IMG/VR virus record: IMGVR_UViG_3300018481_000018
Span: 67,759 to 131,758 of that record
Source of the DNA: a virus
Lineage: Duplodnaviria > Heunggongvirae > Uroviricota > Caudoviricetes
Length of the DNA: 64,000 nucleotides
Strand: one strand, 5' to 3'
Shown here: positions 3,947 to 58,683 of the stretch, piece after piece
How the letters are laid out: each line of letters starts with the position of its first letter
Numbering within the stretch: the first letter of the stretch is position 1
Notes under the pieces: model-generated
Told to the model about the DNA's origin: nothing
Seen by the model: the letters and a program-made list of their open reading frames with translations, nothing else
The model's database searches: none
Translations under genes and position numbers: made by a program

Positions 3947-3964
3947 GGTTCCTCCTTGGGAATC

Positions 3965-20400: not shown

Positions 20401-20425
20401 GCGAGTCTCCTCCTCGGAGATTGGG

Positions 20426-20446: not shown

Positions 20447-20465
20447 GGCAGTTCGTTGGTAGCGG

Positions 20466-44999: not shown

Positions 45000-45129
45000 C
45001 AGTTGTGCGGGTTGCGCTTGTCGTGCACCGCGATCGCCACGATGGCGAGTGCGGCCACGACCAGCAGGAACAGGCCGGTGGGCGAGAGCACGAGTGCCGC
45101 GATGGCCTCGCGTGCGGTCGGCTCGTCCA
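44998..45129 (-). CDS. small membrane peptide (43 aa)
   Basis: ATG 45129 adjacent to upstream stop; MDEPTAREAIAALVLSPTGLFLLVVAALAIVAIAVHDKRNPHN; high GC3. Confidence 0.35.
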
Positions 45130-45429
45130 TCAGGCACCGAAGTCGTCGAAGCTCAGGGCCGCGTAGGTCCTGCGCAGTCGGACGTGGAGCATCCGCATGG
45201 TCAGGCTCTGGGGCCTGCGCTGCGGGTTGCGGGCCAGGATGCGCTTGACCACGGCCTGACTCACGGGCCTACCGCCCGCGTCCTCGCTGTGGAAGATCAC
45301 CTGAGCCCGGATCGGGTCAGGGTGGGTGAGCAGCAGCCGCGCCTCCTCGTCGAGCATGGGCGTGTCGCCCCAACTGCGCCGGTCGAAGTTGGGGCTGATC
45401 GGGTCCAGGCTGTCGTCGTACTCGCTCAT
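45130..45429 (-). CDS. hypothetical protein (99 aa)
   Basis: ATG 45429 (MSEYDDSLDPI..) adjacent to upstream stop. Confidence 0.5.
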   Translation of the reverse strand: MSEYDDSLDPISPNFDRRSWGDTPMLDEEARLLLTHPDPIRAQVIFHSEDAGGRPVSQAVVKRILARNPQRRPQSLTMRMLHVRLRRTYAALSFDDFGA

Positions 45430-45430
45430 G

Positions 45431-45781
45431 TCAGTAGCCCATCTGCTCGGCGTAGTGGTCACGCTGGCTGCGCGCCTCGGTGTCGCACTCGTCGCGGCAG
45501 AACGTCGCCTCGACTGCGCGGTTGCCCTCGTCGGTCACCTCGTGCCAGGACAGGCGCGAGGTGTCGTCGTCGGCGAAGTAGGTCACGTTCAGCGTGGCCC
45601 CGGCGAGCGGCACGAAGGACACCACCGAGGCGAGCACGCGGTTCTTGAAGGCGTGCTCGCTGTGCTGGTCCTCGGGCGAGACCTGCTCGCCTCCGGGCTC
45701 CTGCGCCATGACCCAGGACCTGTCCAGCGGCCCGTCGCAGTCGATCGAGCGGCTCTCCAGGTGTGCGTGCAGTGCGCTCAT
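45431..45781 (-). CDS. hypothetical protein (116 aa)
   Basis: ATG 45781 (MSALHAHLESRS..) preceded by GAAAGGAGGTGCGCG. Confidence 0.55.
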   Translation of the reverse strand: MSALHAHLESRSIDCDGPLDRSWVMAQEPGGEQVSPEDQHSEHAFKNRVLASVVSFVPLAGATLNVTYFADDDTSRLSWHEVTDEGNRAVEATFCRDECDTEARSQRDHYAEQMGY

Positions 45782-45823
45782 CGCGCACCTCCTTTCGTCA
45801 GGGTTGACGGTCAACCCAAGGCC

Positions 45824-45852
45824 GGGGGCCAGCGCCCGAAACGCTGGCCCCC
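45824..45852 (-). terminator. 11-bp perfect stem hairpin GGGGGCCAGCG(cccgaaa)CGCTGGCCCCC
   Basis: 32 nt downstream of stop of gene 45886..46503; adjacent palindrome GGGTTGACGGTCAACCC at 45801-45817. Confidence 0.5.
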
Positions 45853-45885
45853 ACCCTGCTGCGACCGTCAGGCCGTCAGGGTTGC

Positions 45886-46503
45886 TCAGACCTGCGCGGC
45901 CACGGCCGCGTCGATCTCGTGGCGGTCGAACTTGCCGGTCTCGGCGAGCGACTCGCGCAGCGCCCACTCCGAGCGCGGCGTGATCCGGCCCATCGCGTCA
46001 CGCGGGCCGTCGGCCGGGCGCACCTTGGCCGGCGCGTTGGCGTCAACCTTGGCGACCTGGCGGGTGCCCTTGCGACCCTTGGCCTTCGAGCCCTTCTTGG
46101 CGCTCGACTTCTTGGCCTTGGCGGCCGACTTGGTGCCCACGCTGGGCGTGCCGAACTCGCCGGTCAGGACCTTGGTCTTGCGGCCCTCGCCGATGGCCCA
46201 CGGGCCCGTGAGCTCCTGCTCGCCCGCCACGACCGCCTCGGCGATCGCGTTGACCGACAGGCCCTGCGCCCACTTGTGGGTGCGCTTGAACGCGGCCTGG
46301 TTCTTGCGGGTCAGGTACCGGACCTCGCCCTTGGGCGCGGCCTTGGTGCCCTTGGCCTTGGTGCTGGCCTTCGAGCCCGCCTTGGAGCCCTTCTTGGCCG
46401 TGTTGGGCACGTTGCCCTCCAGGGCCGACAGCAGCGCGGTGATCTGCTCGCCGAGGGTCTCGACGGACTGCTCGAGCACGCTGATGCGGGTGTTGTTCGT
46501 CAT
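45886..46503 (-). CDS. lysine/alanine-rich histone H1-like DNA-binding protein (205 aa)
   Basis: Repeated AKKGSKA/KAKG tracts; ORF track. Confidence 0.55.
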   Translation of the reverse strand: MTNNTRISVLEQSVETLGEQITALLSALEGNVPNTAKKGSKAGSKASTKAKGTKAAPKGEVRYLTRKNQAAFKRTHKWAQGLSVNAIAEAVVAGEQELTGPWAIGEGRKTKVLTGEFGTPSVGTKSAAKAKKSSAKKGSKAKGRKGTRQVAKVDANAPAKVRPADGPRDAMGRITPRSEWALRESLAETGKFDRHEIDAAVAAQV

Positions 46504-46648
46504 GACATGACCTCCTGGGTCGGTTGCGTGCCTGGACTTCCCAGGTCACGCGCCTGCGGCATCGCATGACCGCCGTCGAATCGGCGGCCCGCTGTGCGCC
46601 CACAGGCTGGATGTGCGTCTATGTGCAGACGACACGCCCACCGAGCCG

Positions 46649-46670
46649 CTTCAAACGGGCGTCTGAAGCG
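46649..46670. promoter_or_regulatory. imperfect palindrome CTTCAAACG-GG-CGTCTGAAG (operator-like)
   Basis: Intergenic 46504-46685; family consensus. Confidence 0.45.
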
Positions 46671-46685
46671 GTCGGAAGGGGTGTG

Positions 46686-47066
46686 TCAGGCGGGGGTGCC
46701 CTGGATGTAGCACCCGTAGTTGCTGTTGTGCGCCACGACCCTGCGGCCGTGCTCGTTGGCGTAGACCTTGCAACCGAAGGCGCACTCGCTCATGGCGACC
46801 TCGCCCCAGGTGCCCTCGGGCAGGGGCTCGGTCACGCCGATCTCCACAGGGCGGCCCTCCATGAGCGCCTGCTCGGTGGGGGACATCTGGCGCTCCAGCA
46901 CGTGGCTCAGGCGCACGGTGGTGTCCACGCCGTCCTCCAGGGCCGCCTGAGCGGGGGTCCGGGAGAAGCGGTGCTTGCGCGTCTGGGGCACGTGCACCTT
47001 GGCCGGCGCGATCGGGGTCACCTCGGCGAGCAGGTGCTTGGGCAGGGTGGTGGTGGTGTCCTGCAT
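46686..47066 (-). CDS. hypothetical protein (126 aa)
   Basis: ORF track; SD GCCCAAGGAGGCAACCCC. Confidence 0.6.
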   Translation of the reverse strand: MQDTTTTLPKHLLAEVTPIAPAKVHVPQTRKHRFSRTPAQAALEDGVDTTVRLSHVLERQMSPTEQALMEGRPVEIGVTEPLPEGTWGEVAMSECAFGCKVYANEHGRRVVAHNSNYGCYIQGTPA

Positions 47067-47118
47067 GGGGTTGCCTCCTTGGGCATCTGCACATAGGGGC
47101 TTTCCCTAGGTGCGGTTC

Positions 47119-47132
47119 TGGACGGGCGTCCA
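47119..47132. promoter_or_regulatory. perfect palindrome TGGACG-GG-CGTCCA (operator-like)
   Basis: 53 nt upstream of ATG 47066. Confidence 0.5.
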
Positions 47133-47136
47133 TAGC

Positions 47137-47156
47137 GCGCCCTCCTGGGAGGGCGG
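47137..47156 (-). terminator. GC hairpin GCGCCCTCC..GGAGGGCG downstream of gene 47170..47397
   Basis: Inverted repeat seen in sequence. Confidence 0.35.
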
Positions 47157-47169
47157 CTAAAGCAGCCGG

Positions 47170-47397
47170 TCAGAGGGTGGGGCTCAGGTAGACGCCCTGG
47201 TGGTCGCAGTAGGGCGAGCACCAGGGCACCGTGGGGAGCGTGCCGTAGATCGCCATGCGCACAGTGGAGTGGGTGCGCTTGGAGTCCTGGCGCTGGTTGC
47301 GCCGGGTGCCCTCATGCGCCTCTGCGCACAGGGTGTTGAAGGTGGCCCCGATGTCGGGGTCATGGGTGCGGTAGACCGTCACCATGCGACGTTTCAT
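47170..47397 (-). CDS. hypothetical protein (75 aa)
   Basis: ORF track; SD CTGAGGAGGCGCG. Confidence 0.5.
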   Translation of the reverse strand: MKRRMVTVYRTHDPDIGATFNTLCAEAHEGTRRNQRQDSKRTHSTVRMAIYGTLPTVPWCSPYCDHQGVYLSPTL

Positions 47398-47666
47398 GCG
47401 CGCCTCCTCAGGCGTAGTGGGTTCTGGTGCTCGAGCGCGTCCTGCACGCGCTCGCTTAGCTCGACACGCTGGGTGGTGCGGTCACGGTCGAACCGGGCGA
47501 TAGCGGACATCTCGCCACGGGCCTTGCTGTGGGCGTAGTGCTTGCGCATCCGGTGCGTCACGCCCACCCGGTAGTCAGGCGCACCGTGGTTGAACCGGGG
47601 CCGTGCTGCCACCAGGGCGATCAGGTCACGCCCCTGCTGGGTGCGGGCCTCGTACTGGGCGCTCAT
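47394..47666 (-). CDS. hypothetical basic protein (90 aa)
   Basis: ATG 47666 overlaps upstream stop (ATGA). Confidence 0.5.
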   Translation of the reverse strand: MSAQYEARTQQGRDLIALVAARPRFNHGAPDYRVGVTHRMRKHYAHSKARGEMSAIARFDRDRTTQRVELSERVQDALEHQNPLRLRRRA

Positions 47667-47920
47667 GCGAACACCGGGTGAGTGCCGTCGATCACGGACA
47701 CGGGCACAACGGCGGTCACGAAGTAGCAACCCCGAGGCGCAGGGGCCGAGCACACGATCGCTCCCCCCAGGCCCAGGATCACGCGCCTGAAGTTAGCCAG
47801 GTGCTCAGCAGCAACCGTCTCTGTGGGCAGGGCGTGCATGACCACAGGTGCACTCGTGGTGTAGGGCACGGTCAGTGTGGTGGTGGGAGTAGGGGCGTGT
47901 GTGTGCTTGCGTCGGAACAT
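47663..47920 (-). CDS. hypothetical protein (85 aa)
   Basis: ORF track; SD ACAGGAGGACTGACCC. Confidence 0.5.
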   Translation of the reverse strand: MFRRKHTHAPTPTTTLTVPYTTSAPVVMHALPTETVAAEHLANFRRVILGLGGAIVCSAPAPRGCYFVTAVVPVSVIDGTHPVFA

Positions 47921-48051
47921 GGGTCAGTCCTCCTGTGTGTGGGTCAGCGTTGCGCAGCGGATTGCGGCGCAGATTGGAGCGCTGTTATGCACATATGGGC
48001 GGGGTCGTGACGTGTCCAAGGAGGGACATGTACACATAGCGTCCGATATGC

Positions 48052-48104
48052 GTGCCTGGGAGGGGAGTCGAACCCCTCTGAGCGGCCTTGAACCGCGCCA
48101 GGCA
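48052..48104 (-). other. tRNA-like fragment lacking D-arm (acceptor stem, anticodon-like stem-loop, T-arm GGGGTTCGACTCCCC); possible attP core or tRNA remnant
   Basis: Manual fold on - strand: GCCTGGC|GC|GGTTCAAGGCCGC|TCAG|AGGGGTTCGACTCCCCT|CCCAGGC; 6/7 acceptor pairs. Confidence 0.4.
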
Positions 48105-48123
48105 CCCCTTGCAGGGGTGTGCG

Positions 48124-48453
48124 TCAGAGGCCGAGGGCCTTGAGCGCCTGCTCAGGGGTCTTGCCGGCGTCGCGCAGGACCTGCGCCTCGGTCCAGCGGT
48201 CCATGAGCGCCTTGCAGGTGCCCGCCTTGCGCCCGTGGGCGGCCTTGCGGGTGATCTTCGAGTTCCACGCCTTGCGCTGGGCGCGCGTCAGCGCCTGTGC
48301 GGGCTTGGCGTCAGCCTTGGGGGCCTTCGCCTTGCGCGTGGTCTTGGCGGGCGCGTCCACCTCCAGGTGCGCGAGCAGCCTGTCGATGTTGGTGCTCAGC
48401 GCCTCGACCGAGGTCTCCAGGCGTGCGATCCGGTGTGCGTGCGTTGCGGCCAT
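48124..48453 (-). CDS. small basic Lys/Ala-rich protein (109 aa), possible DNA-binding/regulatory
   Basis: ORF track; SD ACAAGGAGCC. Confidence 0.55.
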   Translation of the reverse strand: MAATHAHRIARLETSVEALSTNIDRLLAHLEVDAPAKTTRKAKAPKADAKPAQALTRAQRKAWNSKITRKAAHGRKAGTCKALMDRWTEAQVLRDAGKTPEQALKALGL

Positions 48454-48640
48454 GATGGCTCCTTGTGTGTGTCGAGCCTCCTTGTGAGCCTCGATTCACC
48501 CTTGATCGAGCGACCCTCTAATCGGCTCTGCGTCGCATCCATGTTTCTGACGATGCCCCCCCCGTTCTGGCAAGTCTTTTCCACGCTCAGCGAGAAGGGG
48601 TACGCCACGTACCCAGACACAGCTCGGGTTGGCTGAGCTC

Positions 48641-48656
48641 CCTTGTTCGGATTGGG
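48641..48656 (-). promoter_or_regulatory. promoter-like motif copy (CCCAATCCGAACAAGG on - strand)
   Basis: Matches CAATCCGAACA core; start of 520-bp non-coding region. Confidence 0.4.
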
Positions 48657-49158
48657 CAGGCGCACAGCAGGCACTCCCAGAGACCACTGCACACAGCAGA
48701 GATACAGACGCGCGTCGATATTCGGGCCCCAGGTGTCTCCCCAGCTCAGCGCGGTGGACTGGCCGGTTTACCCGTCACGCGTAGATCAGGTAGATCCGCA
48801 GGGCTCACCGCTCTTCCCCAGGACCACGAGGGTCGGTCAGTAGCAGGAGACGGGCCCTCGAGCTCACAGCCGGCACCAGACAGCCCAGGACCGTCAGATG
48901 GGCACCCGGGCGCACAGCATGGGTCACGGTTCGCCCAGGACGAGCTCCGACGAGCTCCTGGATTACGCGCGAATTACCGCGCGGGCCGAATTTTCGTCGA
49001 TCGCCTGCGGCGATGGATTCCTGCTGGGCCTGTGAGCTGGGCCTGTACCGCGCGTGTGATGTGCGTGAACCAGAGAGCACCGCCTGCGTAGTATTTTCAG
49101 ACAGGCGTTCAAAGTGGCGTTGTGTGCATGGGAATGTGGTTGACCGTTCGGACGAGTG

Positions 49159-49521
49159 TCAGGAAGAGGCGCTTTCTTCCTCGGCGCGCCTACGGAGCCA
49201 GTCGGAGACGTACTGGGCGTTGGCCATCCGCTCCTGGACTCGGTCCGGTCTCCTGGGAGCGTCAGCCCACTGGCCGGTCTGCCAGGCGTCGGCAGCTTCG
49301 CGCAGGGCAGTGGCCTTGATCTGCTGGATGGCGCTGGCTCGGTAGACCGGGACCCGGGGCCGGTGGGACAGGCTGGCGTGGCTACGCAGGCTCGCTTCGG
49401 CGTCCTCGCGGGTCTTGTTGCCCTGGCTGTGCGTCCAGCCACACCGGTCGATGGCGCAGACGGCCTCCCACTCGCTCCATCGGGCCTGTTGCACGTAGCC
49501 GATCTGCTCGTCATCAGTCAT
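49159..49521 (-). CDS. hypothetical protein (120 aa)
   Basis: ORF track; very high GC3. Confidence 0.55.
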   Translation of the reverse strand: MTDDEQIGYVQQARWSEWEAVCAIDRCGWTHSQGNKTREDAEASLRSHASLSHRPRVPVYRASAIQQIKATALREAADAWQTGQWADAPRRPDRVQERMANAQYVSDWLRRRAEEESASS

Positions 49522-49819
49522 GGGACTGGCTCTCCTGCTGTCGGACCACTTCGGCGCAACTCGGGCAGAAGGTGAGCACTACATCGAGGTCATGACCCTG
49601 GTCGTCGTCGGCCTTCTCGTCCGGGAAGCACGAGCCGTAGCAGGCCAGCCACCCGAACTTCTTGACCCCGACGCGCGACCACCGCCGCGTGACCGTGACC
49701 GCCGCGCCGCAGCCCATGAGGGACGGCACCCCGTCACAGCGGTACTCCCAACCGCCACCCACCTTCTCGGCCAGACCGTCGAAGCCAGTCCATCCGTTCC
49801 TTCGCGCCAACGTGGTCAT
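49514..49819 (-). CDS. hypothetical Cys-containing protein (~101 aa)
   Basis: ATG 49819 (MTTLARRNGWTGF..) overlaps upstream stop; ORF track 49514..49894. Confidence 0.45.
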   Translation of the reverse strand: MTTLARRNGWTGFDGLAEKVGGGWEYRCDGVPSLMGCGAAVTVTRRWSRVGVKKFGWLACYGSCFPDEKADDDQGHDLDVVLTFCPSCAEVVRQQESQSHD

Positions 49820-50016
49820 GGTGCGGCGGGGATAAACTTGTACTCCACCTCCGAGGCCCAGGTCGTCTTTTGCAGGTGCTGGTACCTGTCCCACGCAGTG
49901 TCGCGAAACTTGATGACCTCCTCGTGGCGCACGATCTCGCCGTTGTCGTACGACGTGTACGAGACGAGGTAGTTCAGGGCCGGGTCCTCGTAGCCCGAGG
50001 TTGGCTCGTGCCTCAT
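49816..50016 (-). CDS. hypothetical protein (66 aa)
   Basis: ORF track; ATGA coupling. Confidence 0.45.
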   Translation of the reverse strand: MRHEPTSGYEDPALNYLVSYTSYDNGEIVRHEEVIKFRDTAWDRYQHLQKTTWASEVEYKFIPAAP

Positions 50017-50219
50017 GCGTCCTCCTGGACTCGTAGGTTCTCGGGCATCACGTGATCCTCGCGGGGGCTGGCCAGGTCGTTGAAAGCCTCGTCGATGCGC
50101 GCCGTCTCGGCTGGGAAGTCGCGCGCGAGCTCGTGTCCCAGCCGGGTTCCATCACAGTGCGCCAGGTTGCAGCTGTGCGTCACCATCGCGCACCGCGTTT
50201 GCGGGCGATCGCGATACAC
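50013..50219 (-). CDS. hypothetical protein (68 aa)
   Basis: ORF track. Confidence 0.4.
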   Translation of the reverse strand: MYRDRPQTRCAMVTHSCNLAHCDGTRLGHELARDFPAETARIDEAFNDLASPREDHVMPENLRVQEDA

Positions 50220-50398
50220 CGTGGGCAGTCGACCTGGGCCCAGTCATCGGTCCAGGTGCCAGCCTTGGGTCCGCACACCGTGTCGGTGTCGCGGTTTCTC
50301 GGCCGGCCGGGTTTCGGCTTGGCGTAGTAGACGCCGTGCACGGTCTCGGTGGTGATTCTGGGTTTGGTCTCAGTCTTGGTCGACATGCCCGGCATCAT
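50180..50398 (-). CDS. hypothetical basic protein (~72 aa)
   Basis: ATG candidates 50398/50395/50386 right after promoter-like motif; ORF-track start 50416 is TTG inside the motif. Confidence 0.4.
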   Translation of the reverse strand: MMPGMSTKTETKPRITTETVHGVYYAKPKPGRPRNRDTDTVCGPKAGTWTDDWAQVDCPRCIAIARKRGARW

Positions 50399-50402
50399 AC
50401 CT

Positions 50403-50419
50403 GGCAATCCGAACAAAGG
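50403..50419 (+). promoter_or_regulatory. promoter-like motif GGCAATCCGAACAAAGG at divergent switch region
   Basis: CAATCCGAACA core; last - strand gene starts at 50398, first + strand gene at 50430. Confidence 0.5.
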
Positions 50420-50429
50420 GCGCTAGTCT

Positions 50430-50675
50430 GTGCTCGTGAACTCTCCTTGGAACAAGGCCAGTGGCGATCAACGACTCGTAGCGCTGACCCAGGCATCATG
50501 GCTCATGTCGGCGGCGGGGATCGGGTTGGCAATCGGCTGGCTGGTGGAGAACACCGATGCGGGGCCTGATGACATCGGCCTGTACCTGGTACTCACGTTC
50601 TTCTTGATCTCGGCCGGGTTGCGGATCCATGCCTCTCGCTACAGGCATCACCACCGTAAGGACTCTGGGCTGTGA
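50430..50675 (+). CDS. small membrane protein (start uncertain: GTG 50430/50436 or ATG 50505)
   Basis: ORF track; TM LVLTFFLISAGL; GC3 rises after 50505. Confidence 0.4.
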   Translation: MLVNSPWNKASGDQRLVALTQASWLMSAAGIGLAIGWLVENTDAGPDDIGLYLVLTFFLISAGLRIHASRYRHHHRKDSGL

Positions 50676-50857
50676 CGGAGTTCCAGTGCCCGTACGCCGA
50701 GAAGGGTCAGAGCCGGTGCCATCCGGCGATCTGCGACTGCTTCATCGAAACTCATCCCGATGACCCGTTCGGTCTGCATCCTGAGGACTTCCTGGTCAAC
50801 GGACACCGCTATGACCTGGAGGGCCACATGGCCGATTGTCCTGGATGTCTCCCATGA
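50672..50857 (+). CDS. hypothetical Cys/His-rich small protein (61 aa)
   Basis: ORF track; ATGA overlap. Confidence 0.5.
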   Translation: MTEFQCPYAEKGQSRCHPAICDCFIETHPDDPFGLHPEDFLVNGHRYDLEGHMADCPGCLP

Positions 50858-51126
50858 GCGTCACCTTGACTGACAGTGAGGTCGCCCTGACGTGTCAGGA
50901 CGGTCGATGCAACGTGCCGCACTTTCATGCCAGTGCGATTCACGCGATCAAGGCGGACGCGATGGCCAGGGTGCTCGAGCGCGAGGCCGAGTCGCTGATC
51001 CAGGAGACCTGCTCGGGCAACTACAACCCGAACGCGTGCGAGACCTGCCGAGTAGTGGAGGGCTTGCGCGCTACGGCGGCTTACATCCGGGCCGACTATC
51101 TGAAGAATCACTTCAACGAGTCCTGA
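50854..51126 (+). CDS. hypothetical protein (90 aa)
   Basis: ATG 50854 overlaps upstream stop (ATGA). Confidence 0.5.
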   Translation: MSVTLTDSEVALTCQDGRCNVPHFHASAIHAIKADAMARVLEREAESLIQETCSGNYNPNACETCRVVEGLRATAAYIRADYLKNHFNES

Positions 51127-51139
51127 GGAGGACCATCTG

Positions 51140-51289
51140 ATGGAGACCTACGCGTTCTGCGAGTACGGCGACTGTCGCGTGCTGCTGTTCCAGATCGAGG
51201 ACCCCGCCGGCGATACGGCCGTGAACGGCAACTGCCCCAGCTGTGGCCGCTTCGGTCGGACCAAGGACAAGGCCAGTGCCGGAGACTGA
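51140..51289 (+). CDS. zinc-ribbon small protein (49 aa)
   Basis: ATG 51140 preceded by TGAGGAGGACC; CxxC..CPSC; below ORF-track size cutoff. Confidence 0.5.
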   Translation: METYAFCEYGDCRVLLFQIEDPAGDTAVNGNCPSCGRFGRTKDKASAGD

Positions 51290-51671
51290 GCCCTACCAGG
51301 GCACGCAGCGTTGGTTCGGGCAGGCGTTCGACTCGCCGATGTACGAGGGCATGCCCGAGGTTCCCACTCCGGTCGGCAAGGACTGCGGCTTCTGCGATGA
51401 GCCGATCCTCGAGGGCGAGCCCGGCCTGACGATGCCGGGCCTCGTGAAGCAAGGTGCGGACTGGGAGCCGATTCAGATGGCCATCCATACCGAGTGCCAG
51501 ATCCGCTCGGTCCTCGGTGGTCCCTCACACCTGGACGGCACCTGCTCGTGCCACTCGGACTGCGGCCCAGTCGAGAACGTCGTCGCTGGCAAGACTGACC
51601 GCGAGGAAGCGCGCGAGGTCATTGCTCGCGTGTGGGGCCCCGATTGGCAGACCTCTGCTGTACGGCCCTAG
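51276..51671 (+). CDS. hypothetical Cys-rich protein (131 aa)
   Basis: GTG 51276 preceded by AAGGACAAGG; GC3 rises from there; ORF track 51243..51671. Confidence 0.5.
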   Translation: MPETEPYQGTQRWFGQAFDSPMYEGMPEVPTPVGKDCGFCDEPILEGEPGLTMPGLVKQGADWEPIQMAIHTECQIRSVLGGPSHLDGTCSCHSDCGPVENVVAGKTDREEAREVIARVWGPDWQTSAVRP

Positions 51672-51674
51672 CGG

Positions 51675-51839
51675 TCAGGCGTTGTCGACGCCCTTCAGCT
51701 CGTCGATGAGCTCTTCAAGCCGCTGGTCGTAGGCGCGCTCACGTGCCGAGTCGACCTGCGCCCAGCTGATCAGCATGCCCAGGATCGCGCCCACCAGGAA
51801 GGCGATGAGCAGCGGCACCGCCTTGTCGAAGAGCTTCAT
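51675..51839 (-). CDS. small membrane protein (54 aa)
   Basis: ATG 51839 (MKLFDKAVPLLIAFLVGAILGMLISW..); near-saturated GC3. Confidence 0.45.
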   Translation of the reverse strand: MKLFDKAVPLLIAFLVGAILGMLISWAQVDSARERAYDQRLEELIDELKGVDNA

Positions 51840-51854
51840 GTGTTCATCGTAGGG

Positions 51855-51868
51855 CAATCCGAACAAAG
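51855..51868 (+). promoter_or_regulatory. promoter-like motif CAATCCGAACAAAG upstream of tRNA cluster
   Basis: Same core as other copies; ~95 nt before first tRNA. Confidence 0.5.
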
Positions 51869-51962
51869 ATCGTGTACCCTCGCCGCATGAGATTCGGAAG
51901 GCACTGGCGCAACTCCGCCTGATCGTCGGCTACGTGCGGCCGGCGATCAGCCATGGCCCGTA

Positions 51963-52034
51963 GCTCAGCGGAAAGAGCACCCGCCTCCTAAGCGGTTGGC
52001 GCAGGTTCGAGTCCTGCCGGGCCAGCACGAGTGG
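51963..52034 (+). tRNA. tRNA-Arg (anticodon CCT)
   Basis: Manual cloverleaf: acceptor TGGCCCG/CGGGCCA, D-stem GCTC/GAGC, anticodon loop CTCCTAA, T-arm GCAGG-TTCGAGT-CCTGC. Confidence 0.75.
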
Positions 52035-52039
52035 GCATA

Positions 52040-52113
52040 GCTCAAGTTGGCAGAGCATCGGTCTCCAAAACCGAAGGTTGCAGGTTCGAGCCCTGCTGCC
52101 CATGCGATCCGGA
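52040..52113 (+). tRNA. tRNA-Trp (anticodon CCA)
   Basis: Manual cloverleaf: anticodon stem TCGGT/ACCGA perfect, loop CTCCAAA, T-arm GCAGG-TTCGAGC-CCTGC. Confidence 0.75.
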
Positions 52114-52168
52114 CTACGACCTCGGCCGAGATGAGGCACGAGCATCAATGATCCGGACTGGTCCCGTA

Positions 52169-52241
52169 GCTCAAGTGGCAGAGCGCCCGGCCCGAAGCTG
52201 GGAGGCTGGAGGTTCGAGTCCTCCCGGGAACGCAGGATGGG
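52169..52241 (+). tRNA. tRNA, isotype uncertain (anticodon loop CCCGAAG reads CGA with C33; short variable arm)
   Basis: Acceptor GGTCCCG/CGGGAAC (one G.A mismatch), D-arm GCTC-AAGTGGCA-GAGC, T-arm GGAGG-TTCGAGT-CCTCC. Confidence 0.55.
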
Positions 52242-52599
52242 CATGTGTTTGCATAAAGGCGCATAAGTGCACTAAGTTAGCCTACTTAGCGCCTAAGTCG
52301 CCCCATAGCCGCTCGTTCGGGGGCGAATTGGACATATAACACCCGTCTGTACAGGCAATTCGGGACCGGTTCTCGAATCCTGGCAAATCAGATGGACAAG
52401 TCTTTCGATTTTGCAGACAAGGCGACACAGTAGGTGGTATGGCTGCCGGTCACCCCTACCCGCACAGCCGTGTCAGGAACATGGCTGAGCTCTATACGCG
52501 CGCCTACTGGCGCTACTACGTCGTGGCGGTGACGTGGGCAGGAGTCAGTTGCGCGTGCTTCCAACTCCTGCCCGCACCGTTCTCGCCTAGGTAGTCGCC

Positions 52600-53214
52600 C
52601 TACTCGTAGATCTCCAGGGCGGCGTGGCCGAACAGGCAGCCGCCTCCAGCCTTCGCGGCTCCCCATCCTCCGCCGCCGGCGAGCGCTCCAATCACGGCGA
52701 GGCCGCCGCAGCGGAACATCAGCTTGTTCGTCTCCAGGAGCGTGTTGTTCACGGCCTTCTGGCCCGCGCCGCAGGTCGACTGGTTCACGCTGATCGGGTT
52801 CCAGATGATGCACGAGTTGAACTTCAGGTTCTCGCGCCACCAGTCGATCGGGCCTGCCTGGGCCTTCCAGGTGCCAGCTGCCTGCATGGCTGCCTGCTTC
52901 TTGGCGAGACGCTTGCGGATGTGCTTGGGCAGTCTCTTGCCCTTGGCGTTGCCGAGCTTGCCCTTGTCGAACTGGCGGGTCCTCTTCTTGGCCCACTCGT
53001 TCTGACAGTCCGTCTCGCAGACCGGGTACTTCAGACTGGCTCCCGCTACAGGACCCTCGGTCGCATTGGTGGCTGGTGCCCCTTCGGCCGTCTTCGCGTC
53101 GTAGACGAGCATCCCAATGAGTAGGACCAGGACTACCGGGGCGACTGTCAGCCACCACTTCTTCGTTCCGATCGCGTTCTTCAGGTGGCTCTCTCTCTGT
53201 TCGGTGTCGTTCAT
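52600..53214 (-). CDS. membrane-anchored Cys-containing protein (204 aa)
   Basis: ATG 53214 preceded by GAAGGAGTGTC; TM WWLTVAPVVLVLLIGMLVY; Gly-rich C-terminus. Confidence 0.55.
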   Translation of the reverse strand: MNDTEQRESHLKNAIGTKKWWLTVAPVVLVLLIGMLVYDAKTAEGAPATNATEGPVAGASLKYPVCETDCQNEWAKKRTRQFDKGKLGNAKGKRLPKHIRKRLAKKQAAMQAAGTWKAQAGPIDWWRENLKFNSCIIWNPISVNQSTCGAGQKAVNNTLLETNKLMFRCGGLAVIGALAGGGGWGAAKAGGGCLFGHAALEIYE

Positions 53215-53264
53215 GACACTCCTTCGTGACATGCGTCCGGGGGAGACGCTTCCGAGTCCGAACT

Positions 53265-53293
53265 GAATGTTCGGATTCCCAATGTTCGGTTAC
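53265..53293 (-). promoter_or_regulatory. two tandem promoter-like motif copies (GAATGTTCGGATTCCCAATGTTCGGTTAC)
   Basis: Seen in sequence; 50-80 nt upstream of - strand gene start 53214. Confidence 0.5.
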
Positions 53294-53439
53294 AGCAGCG
53301 CAAAGGTCAATGCTCGTCGTGTACCTTCTGTGGCGGTCGGGCCTCGCGTCCCTCCGATGGGAGGGGAAGTGACCTCACTGGATCGAGAGCCGGTGAGCGA
53401 TCGGGGAAGAGCGCGGGGCCTGACCGTTTGTCTCGGCGC

Positions 53440-53452
53440 GTCGAAACCGACG
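53440..53452 (+). promoter_or_regulatory. motif variant GTCGAAACCGACG (cf. GTCGAAACCGAACATT at 61905)
   Basis: ~30 nt upstream of ATG 53482. Confidence 0.3.
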
Positions 53453-53481
53453 GCCGTCCATTCAGGGTGATACTGGCGGCC

Positions 53482-53757
53482 ATGATGATGGAGACGCTGC
53501 GCCTGATGGAGAAGCAGTACGACGTCGTGCTCGGGCCATGTCCAGGCTGCCAGCTCTGGCAGCTCGACTACACATACACCGCCGCCCAGACCTACACCTC
53601 GATCCGAATCAGTGAGATGTTCGAGTTCGGGTCCTCGGATCCCGTGACCTTCCCGGACATCGACATCTCCGGCTTCCACGAGGCCGTGGAGAGCGCTCTC
53701 CAGGAGCATCTCGAGGAGTGCCCGCACCTCCAGCGCGCGCTGTTCGACTTCGGCTGA
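53482..53757 (+). CDS. hypothetical protein with CPGC (91 aa; ORF-track start 53428)
   Basis: ATG triplet at 53482-53490; GC3 rises there. Confidence 0.45.
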   Translation: MMMETLRLMEKQYDVVLGPCPGCQLWQLDYTYTAAQTYTSIRISEMFEFGSSDPVTFPDIDISGFHEAVESALQEHLEECPHLQRALFDFG

Positions 53758-53896
53758 TTTTTCCGAACAAACGCGGCGAAGTTCCTGGTGAACGTCGTGG
53801 CCGTCATCTAATGTGCATAGCAGCCGGCGTGGCGGAGGACCCCGTTGCTCTCCACGCCGGTCACCATGCCGCTACCAACAGGCCCTGGGAGGCCGA

Positions 53897-54154
53897 GTGA
53901 CTTCCAGTCCGTGTGAACTTCACGAGCTGACGAACTGCTCGACGTGCACTGGCGTCGACAAGCGTCACGAGGAGACCTTGCGAGAAGTGCCCTGGGATCG
54001 AGGCTCCCTGCCCAGGATCAGGGGTGGGCCGACTATCTGGGCGCAGTACGCCGGCAACTGCCTCAGCTGCGGCCGTCGCTGGGAGCCGGGGGCCCCGATT
54101 CATCGTTCCGAGGAGTACGACGGTTGGATCGGCGTGGAGTGCTGCGCATCATGA
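53897..54154 (+). CDS. zinc-ribbon-like small protein (85 aa)
   Basis: GTG 53897 preceded by GGGAGG; CxxC..CxxC..CC; upstream ORF-track codons have low GC3. Confidence 0.45.
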   Translation: MTSSPCELHELTNCSTCTGVDKRHEETLREVPWDRGSLPRIRGGPTIWAQYAGNCLSCGRRWEPGAPIHRSEEYDGWIGVECCAS

Positions 54155-54840
54155 GTGGCTCGAAAGCTGGGCCGCCTCCCGGGTTACCTATGAACATGCG
54201 TCTGGATCCGATCGTCGCCGAGCAGGGCCCCTGGATCTGGTGGGTGGTCACCGACTATGGCCTGCGAACGGCCTGGACAGGAGAACCGATGAAGTGTCCT
54301 GTGTGCGGAGGTGGTCGCGAGGCGATGCCGACCTGTGATGAGTGCCGGGGGACTGGCTTCGTGAACCACGTGCCGTTTGCCGATCGGCCTTGGGACGAGA
54401 TCGTTCCGCATCTGTGGCTCGGCGGTCACGACTGTCAGCCGAACGGGGCCGCTGGATGCCCGGACGGCAACGTGTTCATCCACGAGAAGGATGGCTTCGA
54501 CTTGGTGGTGAGTCTTCACTATCGGTTCGGCAACTCGCCTCCGATGTTCACCGAGCACCACACCTATCGACTGGCCGATTCGGATCTGGATCCCGAGCAT
54601 CACACCCATCTCGACGAGATGGCCGAGGTCGTGGAGAAGTCGGTACGCAACGGCCGCAAGACTCTTGTGCGATGCCAGGCCGGCCTGAACCGCTCGGCCC
54701 TGATCGCGGGGTTAGCCATGCTGCGGCTGGGCTACTCGGCCGATGATGCGATTCGGGCGATGCGCCAGAAGCGCTCGCCCTACGTTCTGTGCAACGAGTC
54801 GTTCGTTGCCTACCTCAAGGACAAGGAGAAGGAGAACTGA
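54151..54840 (+). CDS. dual-specificity protein phosphatase with N-terminal CxxC zinc ribbon
   Basis: CX5R active-site loop VRCQAGLNRSALIAG (HCxxGxxRS-type); ATG 54151 overlaps upstream stop (ATGA). Confidence 0.7.
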   Translation: MSGSKAGPPPGLPMNMRLDPIVAEQGPWIWWVVTDYGLRTAWTGEPMKCPVCGGGREAMPTCDECRGTGFVNHVPFADRPWDEIVPHLWLGGHDCQPNGAAGCPDGNVFIHEKDGFDLVVSLHYRFGNSPPMFTEHHTYRLADSDLDPEHHTHLDEMAEVVEKSVRNGRKTLVRCQAGLNRSALIAGLAMLRLGYSADDAIRAMRQKRSPYVLCNESFVAYLKDKEKEN

Positions 54841-55523
54841 TGGTCAAGATGGCTCTGGTGTCGCGGTCCACTTTGGATGGGCCCACCGATGAAGAGATCA
54901 TGCACGTGCTCGGCCTGACGGCCACCTCGACCGGGCAGCTGTGCGATCGCCTGCGCAACCTGTTCACAGGTCGCGACATTCACTCGGGCGAGAAGTTGCT
55001 CACCGAGATGCAGCAGCGGGTCCGCCAGGTGAACGTAGCCAACGGGTGGTTCGACGAGGATCGGTCCTTGGGCGACGGGATCGCCCTGATTCACTCGGAG
55101 ATCTCGGAAATGTTCGAGGCGTACCGCGACCACGGGTTCCGCGACGCGACCCTCGATCACCTTGGCTCGGGGAAGCTGGAAGATCGAGGCAAGTTGCCCA
55201 AGCCTGAAGGCTTCGGGTCCGAGGCTGCCGATGTGCTGGTGCGGATCCTGGATGAGTCCGACCGTCAGGGTTGGACCCTGGATTGGCCCACGCTCCAGGA
55301 GGTTTCGGACTGGGACTACGACGACTTCGACAACCAGGCGACCGTGGGCGCGCACATTGCGAGCATGCATCAGCTGACCGCTCGGGTCGAGATCAACAAG
55401 CTGCTGAGCTACCTCGTGACGTGGTGCCGGCGACTCGATGACATCCACCTCCAGGAGGAGTTCGAGCGGAAGCTGGCCTACAACGCCACGCGCGGCCACA
55501 AGCACGGCGGGAAGCTCCTGTGA
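54840..55523 (+). CDS. MazG-like nucleoside triphosphate pyrophosphohydrolase
   Basis: ALIHSEISEMFEAYR and EAADVLVRILD helices match MazG EExxE/D metal-binding pattern; TGATG overlap. Confidence 0.7.
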   Translation: MVKMALVSRSTLDGPTDEEIMHVLGLTATSTGQLCDRLRNLFTGRDIHSGEKLLTEMQQRVRQVNVANGWFDEDRSLGDGIALIHSEISEMFEAYRDHGFRDATLDHLGSGKLEDRGKLPKPEGFGSEAADVLVRILDESDRQGWTLDWPTLQEVSDWDYDDFDNQATVGAHIASMHQLTARVEINKLLSYLVTWCRRLDDIHLQEEFERKLAYNATRGHKHGGKLL

Positions 55524-55858
55524 ACGGGGCAGAGCGCATCGCTGCCGAGCGTCGTCGGCAGGTCGAGGGGGAGGGGTATGACCCCGAGCATGATGCCGAG
55601 CACCGAAGCGGCGCTTTGGCGTACGCGGCTGCCTGCTATGCCGCACCGGAGACGATCTATCACCTGACTGTTGACGAGCATGTCGATCCCGATGGCGTGC
55701 CCGTCGGGAAGATGGTGTGGCATGAGCCGTGGCCGACGCAGTGGAAGCGTCGCGCGCAGAACACCACCACGCGCGTCGATCGCCTCGACGACCTGACCAA
55801 GGCCGGCGCACTGATTGCGGCCGAGATCGACCGGCTGCTTGCCCAGGAGGAGCTGTGA
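55520..55858 (+). CDS. hypothetical protein (112 aa)
   Basis: GTG 55520 overlaps upstream stop (GTGA); ORF track. Confidence 0.55.
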   Translation: MNGAERIAAERRRQVEGEGYDPEHDAEHRSGALAYAAACYAAPETIYHLTVDEHVDPDGVPVGKMVWHEPWPTQWKRRAQNTTTRVDRLDDLTKAGALIAAEIDRLLAQEEL

Positions 55859-56037
55859 GGCAGGTCTGCAACGAGGACTACTGGAAGGGCATGGAGCAGG
55901 TGCTCGCTCGCAACGGCGATCCAGAGAACCCCGGCGAGCCATGCGGGAGAATCTTCGACGACTTCGATCACTCGACCATCTGCCCTCACGAGTACTTCCC
56001 GCCTGGCCCGGTCATCCGTTCTGATGGGGCGACCTGA
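55855..56037 (+). CDS. hypothetical small protein (60 aa)
   Basis: GTG 55855 overlapping upstream stop, preceded by CAGGAGGAG. Confidence 0.45.
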   Translation: MRQVCNEDYWKGMEQVLARNGDPENPGEPCGRIFDDFDHSTICPHEYFPPGPVIRSDGAT

Positions 56038-56672
56038 TGCGCGCGACGTTCCGCCCTCTCCGCATGGAGACCTGGGACGGCGAGCCGACGCCGGATTGGG
56101 AGCGTCGCTCTCGGAACACGTTCTCAGCCTCCTGGCTGGACACGTTGGACCTGCTGGGTCGCGAGCTCGAGCACCTCGGCGCGGAGCGGTTCGTGATCGA
56201 AGCTGACTTCGCGGAATCAGACATCCGTCTGGATGGGATGCCACGTTCCGGCGCGAAGGCTCCGAAGTTTCCCGGCATCCGAGTGGCGTTCGACTCCAAG
56301 CACGGCCCTCTGGTCTACCAGGCCGACAACTGCCTCTACTGGCAGCACAACGTCCGGTCGATCGCCCTAGGTCTTCAGGCGTTGCGCGCGGTTGACCGAT
56401 ACGGCATCACTCACAGGGCCGAGCAGTACACCGGCTTCAAGGCCCTGCCGAGCGGGGGTAGCAACGGCGGGATCACCGCCGAAGAGGCCAAGGCGCTGCT
56501 GGTCAACCGAAGTGGCATGCGCGAGTGGCCTACCAACCCGGATGCTGTTCGCAAGCTGGTGCGCCTGGCTCGGGCCCGGGCGCATCCTGACGTCTTCGAT
56601 GGTGACCACGCTCCTTGGAACGAGGTCGAAGGTGCGATCACGCACCTGAGGAAGGAGAGGGTGATCGCATGA
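56037..56672 (+). CDS. hypothetical protein with C-terminal J-domain-like segment
   Basis: ..LVRLARARAHPDVFDGDHAPWNEVEGAITHL contains HPD tripeptide in J-domain-like helical context; TGATG coupling. Confidence 0.5.
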   Translation: MRATFRPLRMETWDGEPTPDWERRSRNTFSASWLDTLDLLGRELEHLGAERFVIEADFAESDIRLDGMPRSGAKAPKFPGIRVAFDSKHGPLVYQADNCLYWQHNVRSIALGLQALRAVDRYGITHRAEQYTGFKALPSGGSNGGITAEEAKALLVNRSGMREWPTNPDAVRKLVRLARARAHPDVFDGDHAPWNEVEGAITHLRKERVIA

Positions 56673-56818
56673 TCTGTCGTCTACGAGTGGCGCTCTTCGG
56701 TTTCCAGAAGGGGCATGACTGGAAGCCGATTACGGGAACGACGACGCACTTCAAGGGGAAGCTGTCTTCGGCCCAGTACTGCCAACGGTGCGGCGAGAAC
56801 GGATGGAGGATCTTGTGA
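56669..56818 (+). CDS. small zinc-ribbon-like protein (49 aa)
   Basis: ATG 56669 overlaps upstream stop (ATGA); MICRLRVALFGFQKGHDW..CQRCGENGW. Confidence 0.4.
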   Translation: MICRLRVALFGFQKGHDWKPITGTTTHFKGKLSSAQYCQRCGENGWRIL

Positions 56819-57348
56819 GGGTCGACCAGCAGATACGCAGGAAGGGTTGGTGCGGCTTGATGAGTGAGCATCGAGGCGCTTGCTACCGCCCTGTGCATGA
56901 TGACGATCTGCACGTCACCGAAGCCGGTGATGAGTGGCATGCGGAGCTGACCGACATGGAGCGGCGCGTTCCCATCGAGCCCACGCGCACCCGGCCGGGC
57001 GACCAGGTGCTGCCTGATGGCGATGAGACCCTCTCCTCCGATCAGGAGTTCTTGATCGAGGCGGTTCAGCGGCGGCGAGAGCTGGGGGTTGAGCGGTATG
57101 GCCAAGAGCATCGCCCGTTCAACGGCCGCGACACTCTCCAGGACCTGTTCGAAGAGCAACTGGACTTCATGGTCTACCTGACCTCTCTCAAGCGGATGTC
57201 GGAGGCGTCCAGGGAAGAGGTGGTGCTGGTCATCGCCACCGAGCTCGGCAAGAACGGGTTCCAGGAGATCGTCAGCACGGCGATGGCCGACCAGATCTAC
57301 GTCCGGCTTCAGAGTTGGCTTGCCGCCAAGATGATGGAGGGGCAGTGA
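56815..57348 (+). CDS. hypothetical protein, possibly all-alpha NTP-pyrophosphatase-like (177 aa)
   Basis: GTG 56815 overlapping upstream stop, preceded by GGAGGAT; ELGVERYGQ..DLFEEQLDFMVYL. Confidence 0.45.
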   Translation: MRVDQQIRRKGWCGLMSEHRGACYRPVHDDDLHVTEAGDEWHAELTDMERRVPIEPTRTRPGDQVLPDGDETLSSDQEFLIEAVQRRRELGVERYGQEHRPFNGRDTLQDLFEEQLDFMVYLTSLKRMSEASREEVVLVIATELGKNGFQEIVSTAMADQIYVRLQSWLAAKMMEGQ

Positions 57349-57947
57349 CCGAGAAGGAGACTGCTCGCGTTGCGATGGAGTGGCCTGTCGACCTCAAGGA
57401 TCAGGTGCGCGAGAAGGTGGGTCCGCGTGGCCTGACTGACTTCACCATCGATGCGGTGCGAGCCAAGCTCGCCACTCATACCGCACACCAGGCCGCCGTC
57501 GAGGAGCTCGAAGAGGTCAAGTTCCTCGCACAGCAGCTGGCTGACGCGATCGCCCTGGGCGGTGACTACGAGGACACGGCAGAGACGCTTCGGCTGTTTG
57601 ACCTGCCGTCGTGGATCGAGACCACTGGCTGGTCCGATGAGCTTGTGGCCATCGTGCGGGACGAGGATGACTACCGACCTGCGCACCCTCCAGACAGGGG
57701 CCCGATTCGTCCCGTCGAGGATCATGAACTGCCGGCCGTGGGTGACCCGGGCACTGTCCGATCCGCGCCTCCTGTGGCCCCCAAGGGAGATCTTCTCGAA
57801 CGAGTGCGTAACAAAGCACGGGAGAAGGGAGTTGATCTCAGTGGAGTTGACCTCAGGCCGGCAACGGAGATCGAGGCTCCCCCGGCTACGAATGCCTGTC
57901 CAAACTGCGGCAGCGAGCTTGTTGCCGGCGAATGCTGGGAGTGCTGA
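57345..57947 (+). CDS. hypothetical protein with C-terminal CPNCG..C..C (200 aa)
   Basis: GTG 57345 overlaps upstream stop (GTGA). Confidence 0.5.
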   Translation: MTEKETARVAMEWPVDLKDQVREKVGPRGLTDFTIDAVRAKLATHTAHQAAVEELEEVKFLAQQLADAIALGGDYEDTAETLRLFDLPSWIETTGWSDELVAIVRDEDDYRPAHPPDRGPIRPVEDHELPAVGDPGTVRSAPPVAPKGDLLERVRNKAREKGVDLSGVDLRPATEIEAPPATNACPNCGSELVAGECWEC

Positions 57948-57951
57948 ACAT

Positions 57952-58683
57952 ATGCCTAGAACCGAGAAGGTCATCGTCGCCAACTTCTATGGAGGCGGCA
58001 ACAAGCAAGGGGATCGGCTGCGACGTTGGCTCTCCTTCATCGGGTTCCATGTTGTCTTGATCTCCGAGCTCGGCCATCTGATCGACGAGCTCGAGAAGAT
58101 CGGCAAGGTCTACTACAACCGCAAGGAGTCCAGGCCCTACGACGTGGGGATTCTCGTCTCCAGTTCTGTGATGAACCGGTCTGCGCGAGCGATCTCCTGG
58201 ATGGGCGGGAAGTTGACGCCCTTCGTCCGGCGCAAGGGTCCGGCCAAGCGTCTGTGGCGCGACCGCTGGTTCGTGCGCGTGCGGATCTGGGGTCGGGTCT
58301 ACTACTCGATCCACGCCAATGCAGCGATCACGGGCCCGAAGGGGAACTGGGTCCACAACAAGGGTGCCGCCGTCTGGAAGGAGGCCCTCCGCGAGCTCCA
58401 GGGGATGATCCGCGAGGACATCAAGAAGGGGCTGCGGGTCCGAGTTGGCGGTGACTTCAACATGATCGAGAGCGATGCGGAGAACGCGCCCAATGACTTC
58501 TTCGAAGAGCTCGGCATGAGGCATGTGCACGATCGAGTCATGTGGTTCGGGTGGAACCCCGACACTGACAGGCTCGTGGAGCACAGGGTCCTCGGCATTG
58601 CTCCAGGAGCCGATGCTCACAACGTTCTGGTCGTCAAGCTTCGGCGCATTCGACGCAAGCGGAACCGCAAGAATCGCCGCTGA
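57952..58683 (+). CDS. endonuclease/exonuclease/phosphatase (EEP) superfamily-like protein (243 aa)
   Basis: VGGDFN motif and HANAAITGP; ATG 57952; ORF-track upstream part junk. Confidence 0.55.
   Translation: MPRTEKVIVANFYGGGNKQGDRLRRWLSFIGFHVVLISELGHLIDELEKIGKVYYNRKESRPYDVGILVSSSVMNRSARAISWMGGKLTPFVRRKGPAKRLWRDRWFVRVRIWGRVYYSIHANAAITGPKGNWVHNKGAAVWKEALRELQGMIREDIKKGLRVRVGGDFNMIESDAENAPNDFFEELGMRHVHDRVMWFGWNPDTDRLVEHRVLGIAPGADAHNVLVVKLRRIRRKRNRKNRR

Follow-up and report, generated by a model that had tools for sequence, protein, structure and literature searches.

The window analysed here is a stretch of 64,000 nucleotides (nt) from the IMG/VR virus record IMGVR_UViG_3300018481_000018, and between two small genes on its minus strand it carries a sequence that resembles part of a transfer RNA (tRNA). 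The question is what such a sequence does in a phage genome. A sequence-only reading of the window described it as a tRNA-like fragment lacking a D-arm and proposed that it is the core of a phage attachment site (attP), a junction left over from another element, or a processed mini-RNA. The element belongs to a conserved family of small tRNA look-alikes, apparently not described before, that are located between actinophage genes. We suggest, at a probability of roughly 0.55, that it is a sense-strand mimic of the tRNA 'top half' that serves actinophage operons as an RNase P / RNase Z processing signal in polycistronic messenger RNA (mRNA). The mini-RNA is thus the earlier proposal closest to what the evidence favours, the processing itself being a prediction.

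The element is 51 nt long and located at 48053..48103 on the minus strand, from G1 at 48103 to A73 at 48053. Its parts are, in brief, an acceptor stem and a T stem of 6 bp each, with a hairpin between them. The acceptor 5' strand, GCCUGG (GCCTGG in the DNA; 48098..48103), pairs with the acceptor 3' strand, CCAGGC (48054..48059), and the equivalent pairs covary throughout the family. A single C (48097) forms the junction between the acceptor and the middle hairpin, GCGG-UUCAAGG-CCGC (48082..48096), which is a variable module in place of the family linker AUGGUCGYAG. The spacer TCA (48079-48081) leads from this hairpin to the T-arm, GAGGGG-UUCGACU-CCCCUC (48060..48078), with its 7-nt loop UUCGACU. 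The acceptor 3' strand is followed by a discriminator-like A73 and then C74 (48052..48053; A73 is 48053 and C74 is 48052). An extra, lineage-specific hairpin, ACCCCTGCAAGGGGT (= ACCCCUGCAAGGGGU), is found at 48104..48118, also on the minus strand, between the element and the stop codon of the upstream gene; it begins 5 nt past the TGA (48126-48124) of that gene, an open reading frame (ORF) of 109 aa. Read from this TGA, the minus strand is CGCAC-ACCCCTGCAAGGGGT-GCCTGG-C-GCGGTTCAAGGCCGC-TCA-GAGGGG-TTCGACT-CCCCTC-CCAGGC-A-C.

The minus-strand parts named in the sequence-only reading, that is the acceptor-like stem, the 4-bp stem with loop TTCAAGG, the T-arm and the extra 5' hairpin, are all present at the site. 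That reading gave the acceptor seven positions with six pairs. The six pairs hold, the seventh position is a C-C mismatch, and G48078 pairs with C48060 in the T stem instead. Six acceptor pairs and a 6-bp T stem are therefore the better layout, and together they give a 12-bp coaxial stack. The predicted fold of the 51-nt RNA is the structure described (-28.6 kcal/mol, z = -3.2), and none of 200 shuffled sequences was as stable. The T-arm motif GGTTCRANTCC occurs three times in the window, at this site and in two real tRNAs, compared to 0.23 times in shuffles.

Two covariance models were built for the family, R1 from 16 distinct sequences of the linker type and R2 from 53 copies with the window left out. 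R2 matched the element from end to end, at 48104-48052, with 41.8 bits (E = 2.7e-7), and its runner-up in the window reached 19 bits only. No second copy of the element was found in the window. One candidate, at 47193-47229 on the plus strand, scores 19 bits with the family models and was rejected as a probable chance match, being a plain hairpin without a T-arm. It has a stem of 9 bp, of the form GCCCTGGTG...CACCAGGGC, and a loop that starts in a GGTCGCAG-like sequence, and it is located within a small ORF in antisense orientation.

Three homologues of the 109-aa protein (P0002-P0004), with 66-77% identity, are encoded on the metagenomic contigs L078/L079, L080 and L081, and in each of these the element directly follows the stop codon of the homologue. 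An alignment of the four loci shows no change in either acceptor strand, in the T stem or in A73-C74-G, at an average identity of 69% in the flanks. The T-arm is the same in L078 and L081 as in the window, while that of L080 deviates in the loop only. The extra 5' hairpin is found in the window only and is absent from L078, L080 and L081. The middle hairpin is common to the window and L080 only. In L078 and L081 a 10-nt single-stranded linker, AUGGUCGCAG, replaces it, and the element reads GCCTGG-ATGGTCGCAG-GAGGGG-TTCGACT-CCCCTC-CCAGGC-A. These two copies score 70.6 bits each with R1; L078 is one of the 16 sequences from which that model was built, and the L081 copy is identical to it.

The alignment places the hairpin segment AAGGCCGC over the linker segment ATGGTCGC. 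The hairpin therefore arose from the linker via an 8-nt insertion, CGCGGTTC, that made the linker self-complementary, and R2 likewise aligns the window copy with cgcgguuc as an insertion. The acceptor and T-arm thus form the conserved core of the element, and the middle is a variable module. The label 'D-arm-less' is then questionable, because the middle hairpin is the linker plus 8 nt and the GG of its loop is aligned with the conserved GG of the linker. A D-arm-like reading of the hairpin, whose loop contains GG, is possible, and the element can be taken at least as well for a tRNA that has such a hairpin and lacks the anticodon arm. We also considered a 'Leu' reading, in which the loop UUCAAGG holds a CAA anticodon and A73 follows the acceptor. 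It was rejected as primary reading, as the hairpin is absent from close orthologues and aligns to the linker, and as the loop fits a T-loop or a D-loop equally.

The pairing is maintained throughout the wider family. The search pattern that gave the 16 distinct linker-type sequences fixed the linker and the four inner T-stem pairs, and placed no constraint on the acceptor (six pairs) or on the outer T stem (two pairs). In this set, 99.5% of the cells are paired and seven of the 12 pairs show changes on both sides. None of 500 shuffles matched the observed percentage paired or the covariation score, and sliding the partner by 1-3 columns lowered the pairing to 48-66%. A larger set of 28 distinct sequences gave 98.8% of cells paired and covariation at 10 of the 12 pairs, in an alignment that was fitted to the model structure and is hence biased towards it. 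RNAalifold recovered the same 12 pairs de novo.

Across 41 copies, the acceptor and T stem total 12 bp in 30, with the junction between them shifting among 5+7, 6+6 and 7+5. The T-loop consensus is UUCRANU. The linker is 10-11 nt long in 34 of these copies, with GG(U) retained. Position 73 is A in 30 and position 74 is C in 36, and G1 is usual. The acceptor sequence varies freely between copies.

The position of the element relative to genes is regular too. For 54 copies, window included, an ORF on the same strand ends upstream at a median distance of 9 nt (4-12 nt for most copies), and the next start codon, with a Shine-Dalgarno site before it, follows downstream at a median distance of 34 nt. 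The annotated genomes show the same arrangement. The copies are on the sense strand, always in the direction of transcription, and they are located in early or non-structural operons. In the window, G1 is found 20 nt past the TGA and the next start about 130 nt away, with the element on the same strand as both neighbours. At the steady distance of 4-12 nt, a terminating ribosome would reach into the acceptor stem, and translation termination may be coupled with folding or cleavage of the element.

A scan of IMG/VR, using the linker and the inner T-arm as pattern, found the linker-type element on 34 contigs, several of them with two or three copies. A BLAST search with the consensus against cultured phages found it in the Gordonia phages Morgana, Cafasso, Aleemily, ObLaDi, VanLee, MakoManhole and Trine, in the Mycobacterium phages MyraDee, SWU2, HINdeR, Sheen, Odin, Superchunk and Indlulamithi, in Streptomyces phage Dagobah and in Corynebacterium phage StAB. 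Nearly all of these matches fall in unannotated sequence. Using R1, a copy was found in each of seven intergenic gaps within 6 kb of Indlulamithi, six with E < 0.002 and one with E = 0.11. In Morgana, one strand of an early operon carries six copies, four with E < 0.001 and two weaker, and the divergent operon one or two more. Many genomes have more than one copy, and in both of these phages there is one for each intergenic gap. In Gordonia phage Trine, three copies follow each other in tandem without an ORF in between. Host DNA from the surroundings of real tRNAs (490 kb) served as control and gave local T-arm matches only, of at most 20.7 bits compared to 45-73 bits for the high-confidence copies.

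Some of these loci have features of their own. In Trine (L238, MH271318), the three copies (3765-4068) are split by (GGCAN)n pentamer repeats and lie inside the annotated gene 40 (3772-4575). To judge from the sequence, the real start of this gene is probably the ATG at 4069, about 300 nt downstream and preceded by GAGAGGA, which would make the annotation likely to be mistaken. In Morgana (L233; 6044-6070, 6901-6925 and 8161-8185), a GC-rich hairpin with a tetraloop comes after each element, and after the hairpin comes GGCACGGC(AC), a short repeat common to Morgana and Trine.

Other searches delimit the family. When metagenomes were scanned for acceptors of the window type, irrespective of the middle part, a single contig was obtained, L239, which has a further variant of the middle module. 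This contig has a second, more divergent element 220 nt downstream, and the middle modules of its two elements are different hairpins. The pattern GGGGTTCRANTCCCCTNNNNNGCAC was too loose and returned mostly ordinary tRNAs ending in CCA; filtering its matches with ARAGORN gave the first distant family members. An exact search of IMG/VR for the T-arm and acceptor of the window, and a protein-based locus search of IMG/VR using the 109-aa ORF, each gave no matches. Searching cultured phages with 48040-48125 by BLAST gave T-arm pieces of family members only. Abundant non-coding RNAs are known from the right end of cluster-A phages (PMC5712189). The right arm of D29 holds no copy of the element, and those RNAs are therefore a different thing.

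The element escapes the usual RNA gene finders. ARAGORN made no call at the site in its standard, low-threshold (-ps) or metazoan-mitochondrial modes, and its search for transfer-messenger RNA (tmRNA) was negative. The sequence-only reading had proposed comparison with tRNA and tmRNA models, and no Rfam tRNA match was obtained, even at E up to 10. At the gathering thresholds and at E up to 10, Rfam 15 gave chance-level matches only (PyrR201 with 22.7 bits; mascRNA with 16.9 bits; tRNA-Sec with 14.1 bits, compared to a threshold of 47).

Could the element nevertheless be an attP core, a copy of the 3' end of a host tRNA serving an integrase encoded elsewhere? A 23-nt sequence covering the T-arm and the acceptor 3' strand is found at 76 host loci, almost all of them tRNA-Thr(CGT) genes of Acidimicrobiales with T as discriminator, and together with A73 it also matches the tRNA-Leu(UAA) of two Acidobacteria metagenome-assembled genomes. 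This identity would suit an attachment site, and the sequence may by itself hint at the tRNA ancestry of the element or at the host. An attP core typically shares 40-50 bp with its tRNA, and here the identity is 23-24 nt. The 42-nt 3' part, reaching from the presumed anticodon stem to the 3' end, gave no match in the proposed search of host genomes, made by exact matching only against 185,579 species genomes. At four host loci, unrelated DNA without a 5' acceptor strand precedes a 3' part of the Acidimicrobiales tRNA-Thr(CGT) that begins in the anticodon region and is complete at its 3' end. Such an arrangement marks integrated elements for which this tRNA serves as bacterial attachment site (attB). 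Such genuine att-type fragments lack the 5' acceptor strand, whereas the window element has one, together with a different middle part. Moreover, this 5' strand covaries with the 3' strand, which an att core does not need. The earlier remark that no integrase is visible in the window is borne out by its 30 largest ORFs (205-586 aa), none of which is an integrase, and on a 13-kb contig that spans the site none of the called genes has a recorded integrase domain. The scan covered these ORFs and this contig, and the genome is about 144 kb, which leaves some room for an integrase. However, the family is multi-copy and located away from the integrase gene; Indlulamithi has at least seven copies within 6 kb, and Trine has its three in tandem. 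In Corynebacterium phage StAB, the element is 2.6 kb from the integrase gene, with four other genes between. The attP proposal is largely refuted already, and we give it next to no chance.

The same conservation speaks against anything left behind. A junction or remnant, as also proposed earlier, does not agree with 12 stem pairs and a T-loop that are nearly invariant while the flanking protein is 66-77% identical. Decay of a tRNA gene into an internally deleted, functionless pseudogene would account for an acceptor and T-arm that look tRNA-derived, and there are real tRNAs 4 kb away in the same phage. It would not account for an element that is near-invariant and in place across orthologues, nor for its compensatory changes and conserved 12-bp stack in phages of at least four host genera, and we consider such decay highly improbable.

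What, then, would the element do? RNase P, RNase Z and the CCA-adding enzyme read the 12-bp acceptor/T-stem ruler, the T-loop with GG, G1, the discriminator base and C74. Our reading as a top-half mimic follows from the observation that the features read by tRNA-maturation enzymes are kept while the decoding parts are missing or freely replaced. The RNA forms a 12-bp acceptor/T-stem stack with a canonical T-loop as its cap and without an anticodon arm, and the short GG-containing linker, or the small hairpin in the window, can dock on the T-loop like a D-loop to form the 'elbow'. In the window, the element would be transcribed within a polycistronic mRNA, between the 109-aa and 85-aa genes, and recognised by the tRNA-maturation enzymes of the host. 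RNase P would cut immediately 5' of G1, and A73/C74 would be the site of action of RNase Z or 3' trimming, with CA perhaps added afterwards. The operon transcript would be split at gene boundaries and a tRNA-like RNA of 45-53 nt released. In brief, from the structure, conservation, covariation, position and copy number of the element, all of which are shown, we infer that it is transcribed in cis and cut by RNase P or RNase Z.

The closest precedent for the phage element is the t-elements of plant mitochondria. In these, cuts by RNase P and RNase Z at elements with the same GGTTCRANYCC arm make mRNA ends, and excised t-elements have non-encoded C/A additions (Forner et al. 2007, PMC1920247). 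They were found by the same GGTTCRANYCC search (PMC1920247). Both are non-tRNA elements with a GGTTCRANYCC T-arm and an acceptor-like stem, located in mRNA precursors beside coding regions (PMC1920247). The T-arm, the acceptor-like stem and the sense intergenic placement are found in 54 copies of the phage element, with enzyme-made ends being predicted. The t-elements occur sporadically in organelles, have a length of about 74 nt and fold into non-canonical cloverleaves, whereas the phage element is a two-helix 'top half' of 44-53 nt with a defined linker. It is also a covarying sequence family, often found at every gene junction, for which cleavage is a prediction only.

Other tRNA-like RNAs share parts of this layout. 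With a canonical tRNA, the element has in common the T-arm GGTTCRANYCC, the acceptor complementarity and the 12-bp acceptor/T-stem stack followed by a discriminator base. It does not have the four-arm cloverleaf with D-arm and anticodon arm, and most copies have no functional anticodon arm. The mascRNA/MEN-beta RNA (RF01684) and the viral tRNA-like RNAs of MHV68 are also small tRNA-shaped modules in a longer transcript, which are processed by RNase P and RNase Z, receive CCA and do no decoding. These are eukaryotic and, unlike the phage element, form a cloverleaf with D-like and anticodon-like stems. RF01684 is the best sub-threshold Rfam model of tRNA-like layout (16.9 bits for the window and 16.4 bits for L205), and as this is far below its gathering threshold of 42.5 bits there is no homology. 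The tRNA-like domain of tmRNA resembles the element in having an acceptor and T-arm, a D-loop analogue for the D-arm and no anticodon arm. The element has C3-G70 and not G3-U70, no tag reading frame and no pseudoknots, and its strands are contiguous, compared to about 300 nt apart in tmRNA.

A second relevant case is YrlA, which is a tRNA mimic of actinobacteria and their phages (PMC4201824). In Mycobacterium smegmatis, it is cleaved by RNase P RNA in vitro and cleaved at the same site in vivo, where it also gains CA after an encoded C (PMC4201824). The ends of YrlA form a helix that binds Ro60, and its gene adjoins the Ro60 (TROVE) gene, whereas the ends of the element form an acceptor stem. 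We did not find a TROVE protein near the element; the only vWA protein in the window (15983-17743) is 30 kb away and has no TROVE match.

Several points weigh against the processing signal, in addition to the bias of the 28-sequence alignment. No transcript-end mapping for element-bearing phages was found in the open-access papers searched, so cleavage is entirely a prediction. The element is single copy in the 64-kb window, and 'punctuation' is thus not a general strategy of the window genome. An RNA product would explain the three ORF-less tandem copies of Trine better than a signal that does nothing but separate mRNAs. RNase P does not need the constant spacing of 4-12 nt from the stop codon, which hints at a link with translation termination. 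The Trine array, the conservation of A73/C74 and the constant stop distance keep two other explanations alive, a decoy acting in trans and a coupling to translation termination.

For the decoy, the released and possibly CCA-tailed RNA would itself be the product, a sponge for host factors that bind the top half of tRNA, such as acceptor-end-modifying toxins of abortive infection, the CCA-adding enzyme, EF-Tu or aminoacyl-tRNA synthetases. The numerous copies in early, non-structural operons, the three Trine copies without intervening ORFs, and A73 and C74 conserved as if seeding a CCA end would agree with this, as would the gain of CA after the encoded C in YrlA of M. smegmatis (PMC4201824). 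Its fixed place between the stop codon and the next ribosome-binding site rather suggests a role in cis, and the freely varying acceptor sequence means that no single synthetase identity is mimicked. We regard the decoy as unlikely but worth keeping in view; it overlaps with the processing signal, since processing would still be needed. A bolder version holds that the copies are genes for a new class of CCA-tailed phage 'top-half' RNAs of about 45 nt, excised from early mRNAs and acting in trans, with 'punctuation' as a by-product. These could be decoys for the acceptor-end-targeting defence toxins common in actinobacteria, or titrate or redirect the CCA-adding enzyme, EF-Tu or a synthetase. 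We are doubtful of this version and would not expect it to hold.

A tRNA-shaped structure after the stop codon might also act on translation in cis, by modulating termination, read-through or re-initiation. Stimulators of recoding are typically located 5-9 nt downstream of the recoding site, and the tight spacing between stop codon and structure (median 9 nt) agrees with this, as does the C-rich spacer with a Shine-Dalgarno site that follows at a constant distance. A plain hairpin or pseudoknot would suffice for such a role, whereas the T-loop, GG linker, 12-bp ruler and A73/C74 are specific to enzymes that recognise tRNA. In addition, the window spacing is 20 nt with the next start about 130 nt away, and copies 2 and 3 of Trine follow no ORF. 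We find this explanation quite improbable. An element acting as DNA, that is a linker for recombination or mosaicism at gene boundaries, a miniature mobile element or a non-canonical terminator, would explain its recurrence where genes meet in the mosaic genomes of actinophages. The downstream spacer and ribosome-binding site are often part of the repeat unit, and GC-rich hairpins are found alongside the element in Morgana and L239. However, its orientation is strictly that of transcription, covariation keeps the pairing and not the sequence, there are no terminal repeats or target duplications, and no U-tract follows. A function as DNA is in our opinion very improbable.

The window element sits in a 203-nt gap between two co-oriented small genes, both on the minus strand. 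The upstream 109-aa ORF (48124..48453) ends 20 nt before G1 and encodes a protein without a Pfam domain. The downstream 85-aa ORF (47663..47920) is preceded by a GGAGG ribosome-binding site. Between the element and this gene, 12-40 nt downstream of the element and on the same strand, is a motif of the form GCTATGTG.A..TGTCC-N6-GGACA (48013..48040), which contains a 5-N6-5 palindrome. This motif is invariant in all four orthologous lineages and occurs once in the window. An operator or promoter for the 85-aa gene is conceivable, as is an RNA hairpin, and the motif may not be part of the element.

The window represents a new high-GC phage-like genome. BLAST searches at near and distant settings with the surrounding 2.5-5.7 kb gave no match among 50,697 cultured-phage records, indicating that the phage itself is new, and no plasmid match was found. 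Positions 45115-58269 of the window are 100% identical to a metagenome contig in ENA (13 kb, spanning the site), and the 109-aa protein is also recorded on a JGI contig of 144,413 bp. ARAGORN predicts three tRNAs at 51954-52233, about 4 kb from the element. One of these, tRNA-Ser(CGA) at 52160-52233 on the plus strand, is 74 nt long, has no long variable arm and has C33 in its anticodon loop (CCCGAAG). It scores 48.6 bits with Rfam and is an atypical phage tRNA whose identity is doubtful. Elsewhere in the window, Ku (27355-28203) adjoins an ATP-dependent DNA ligase (26095-27258) on the minus strand, a non-homologous end-joining pair. The window also encodes a MoxR ATPase (19141-20835), the vWA protein (15983-17743), an SPFH protein (31544-32449), a dual-specificity phosphatase (53944-54840) and a sigma-70-type factor (59468-60523).

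We did not find a published description of the family in open-access full text, where the motif string was also searched. The motif could be present, unnamed, in a large survey of structured RNAs in IMG/VR (PMC10690425). As a concept, a tRNA-like processing element or mimic is known, and what would be new is its occurrence as a phage RNA family. To our knowledge, such cutting has so far been documented for organelles and eukaryotic nuclei and not as a phage-wide RNA family.

The window feature is real and conserved, and it is not evidence of integration, which removes a false lead to a temperate phage. For annotators, the family provides a 44-nt motif that is currently unannotated and, in Trine, annotated as coding sequence. 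The proposed role is testable in culturable pairs of phage and host, for instance Indlulamithi or HINdeR in M. smegmatis and Morgana in G. rubripertincta. If it is true, many actinobacteriophages, including well-studied phages of Mycobacterium, Gordonia, Streptomyces and Corynebacterium, would use the tRNA-processing enzymes of their hosts to cut operon transcripts at gene boundaries, or would make small tRNA-shaped RNAs.

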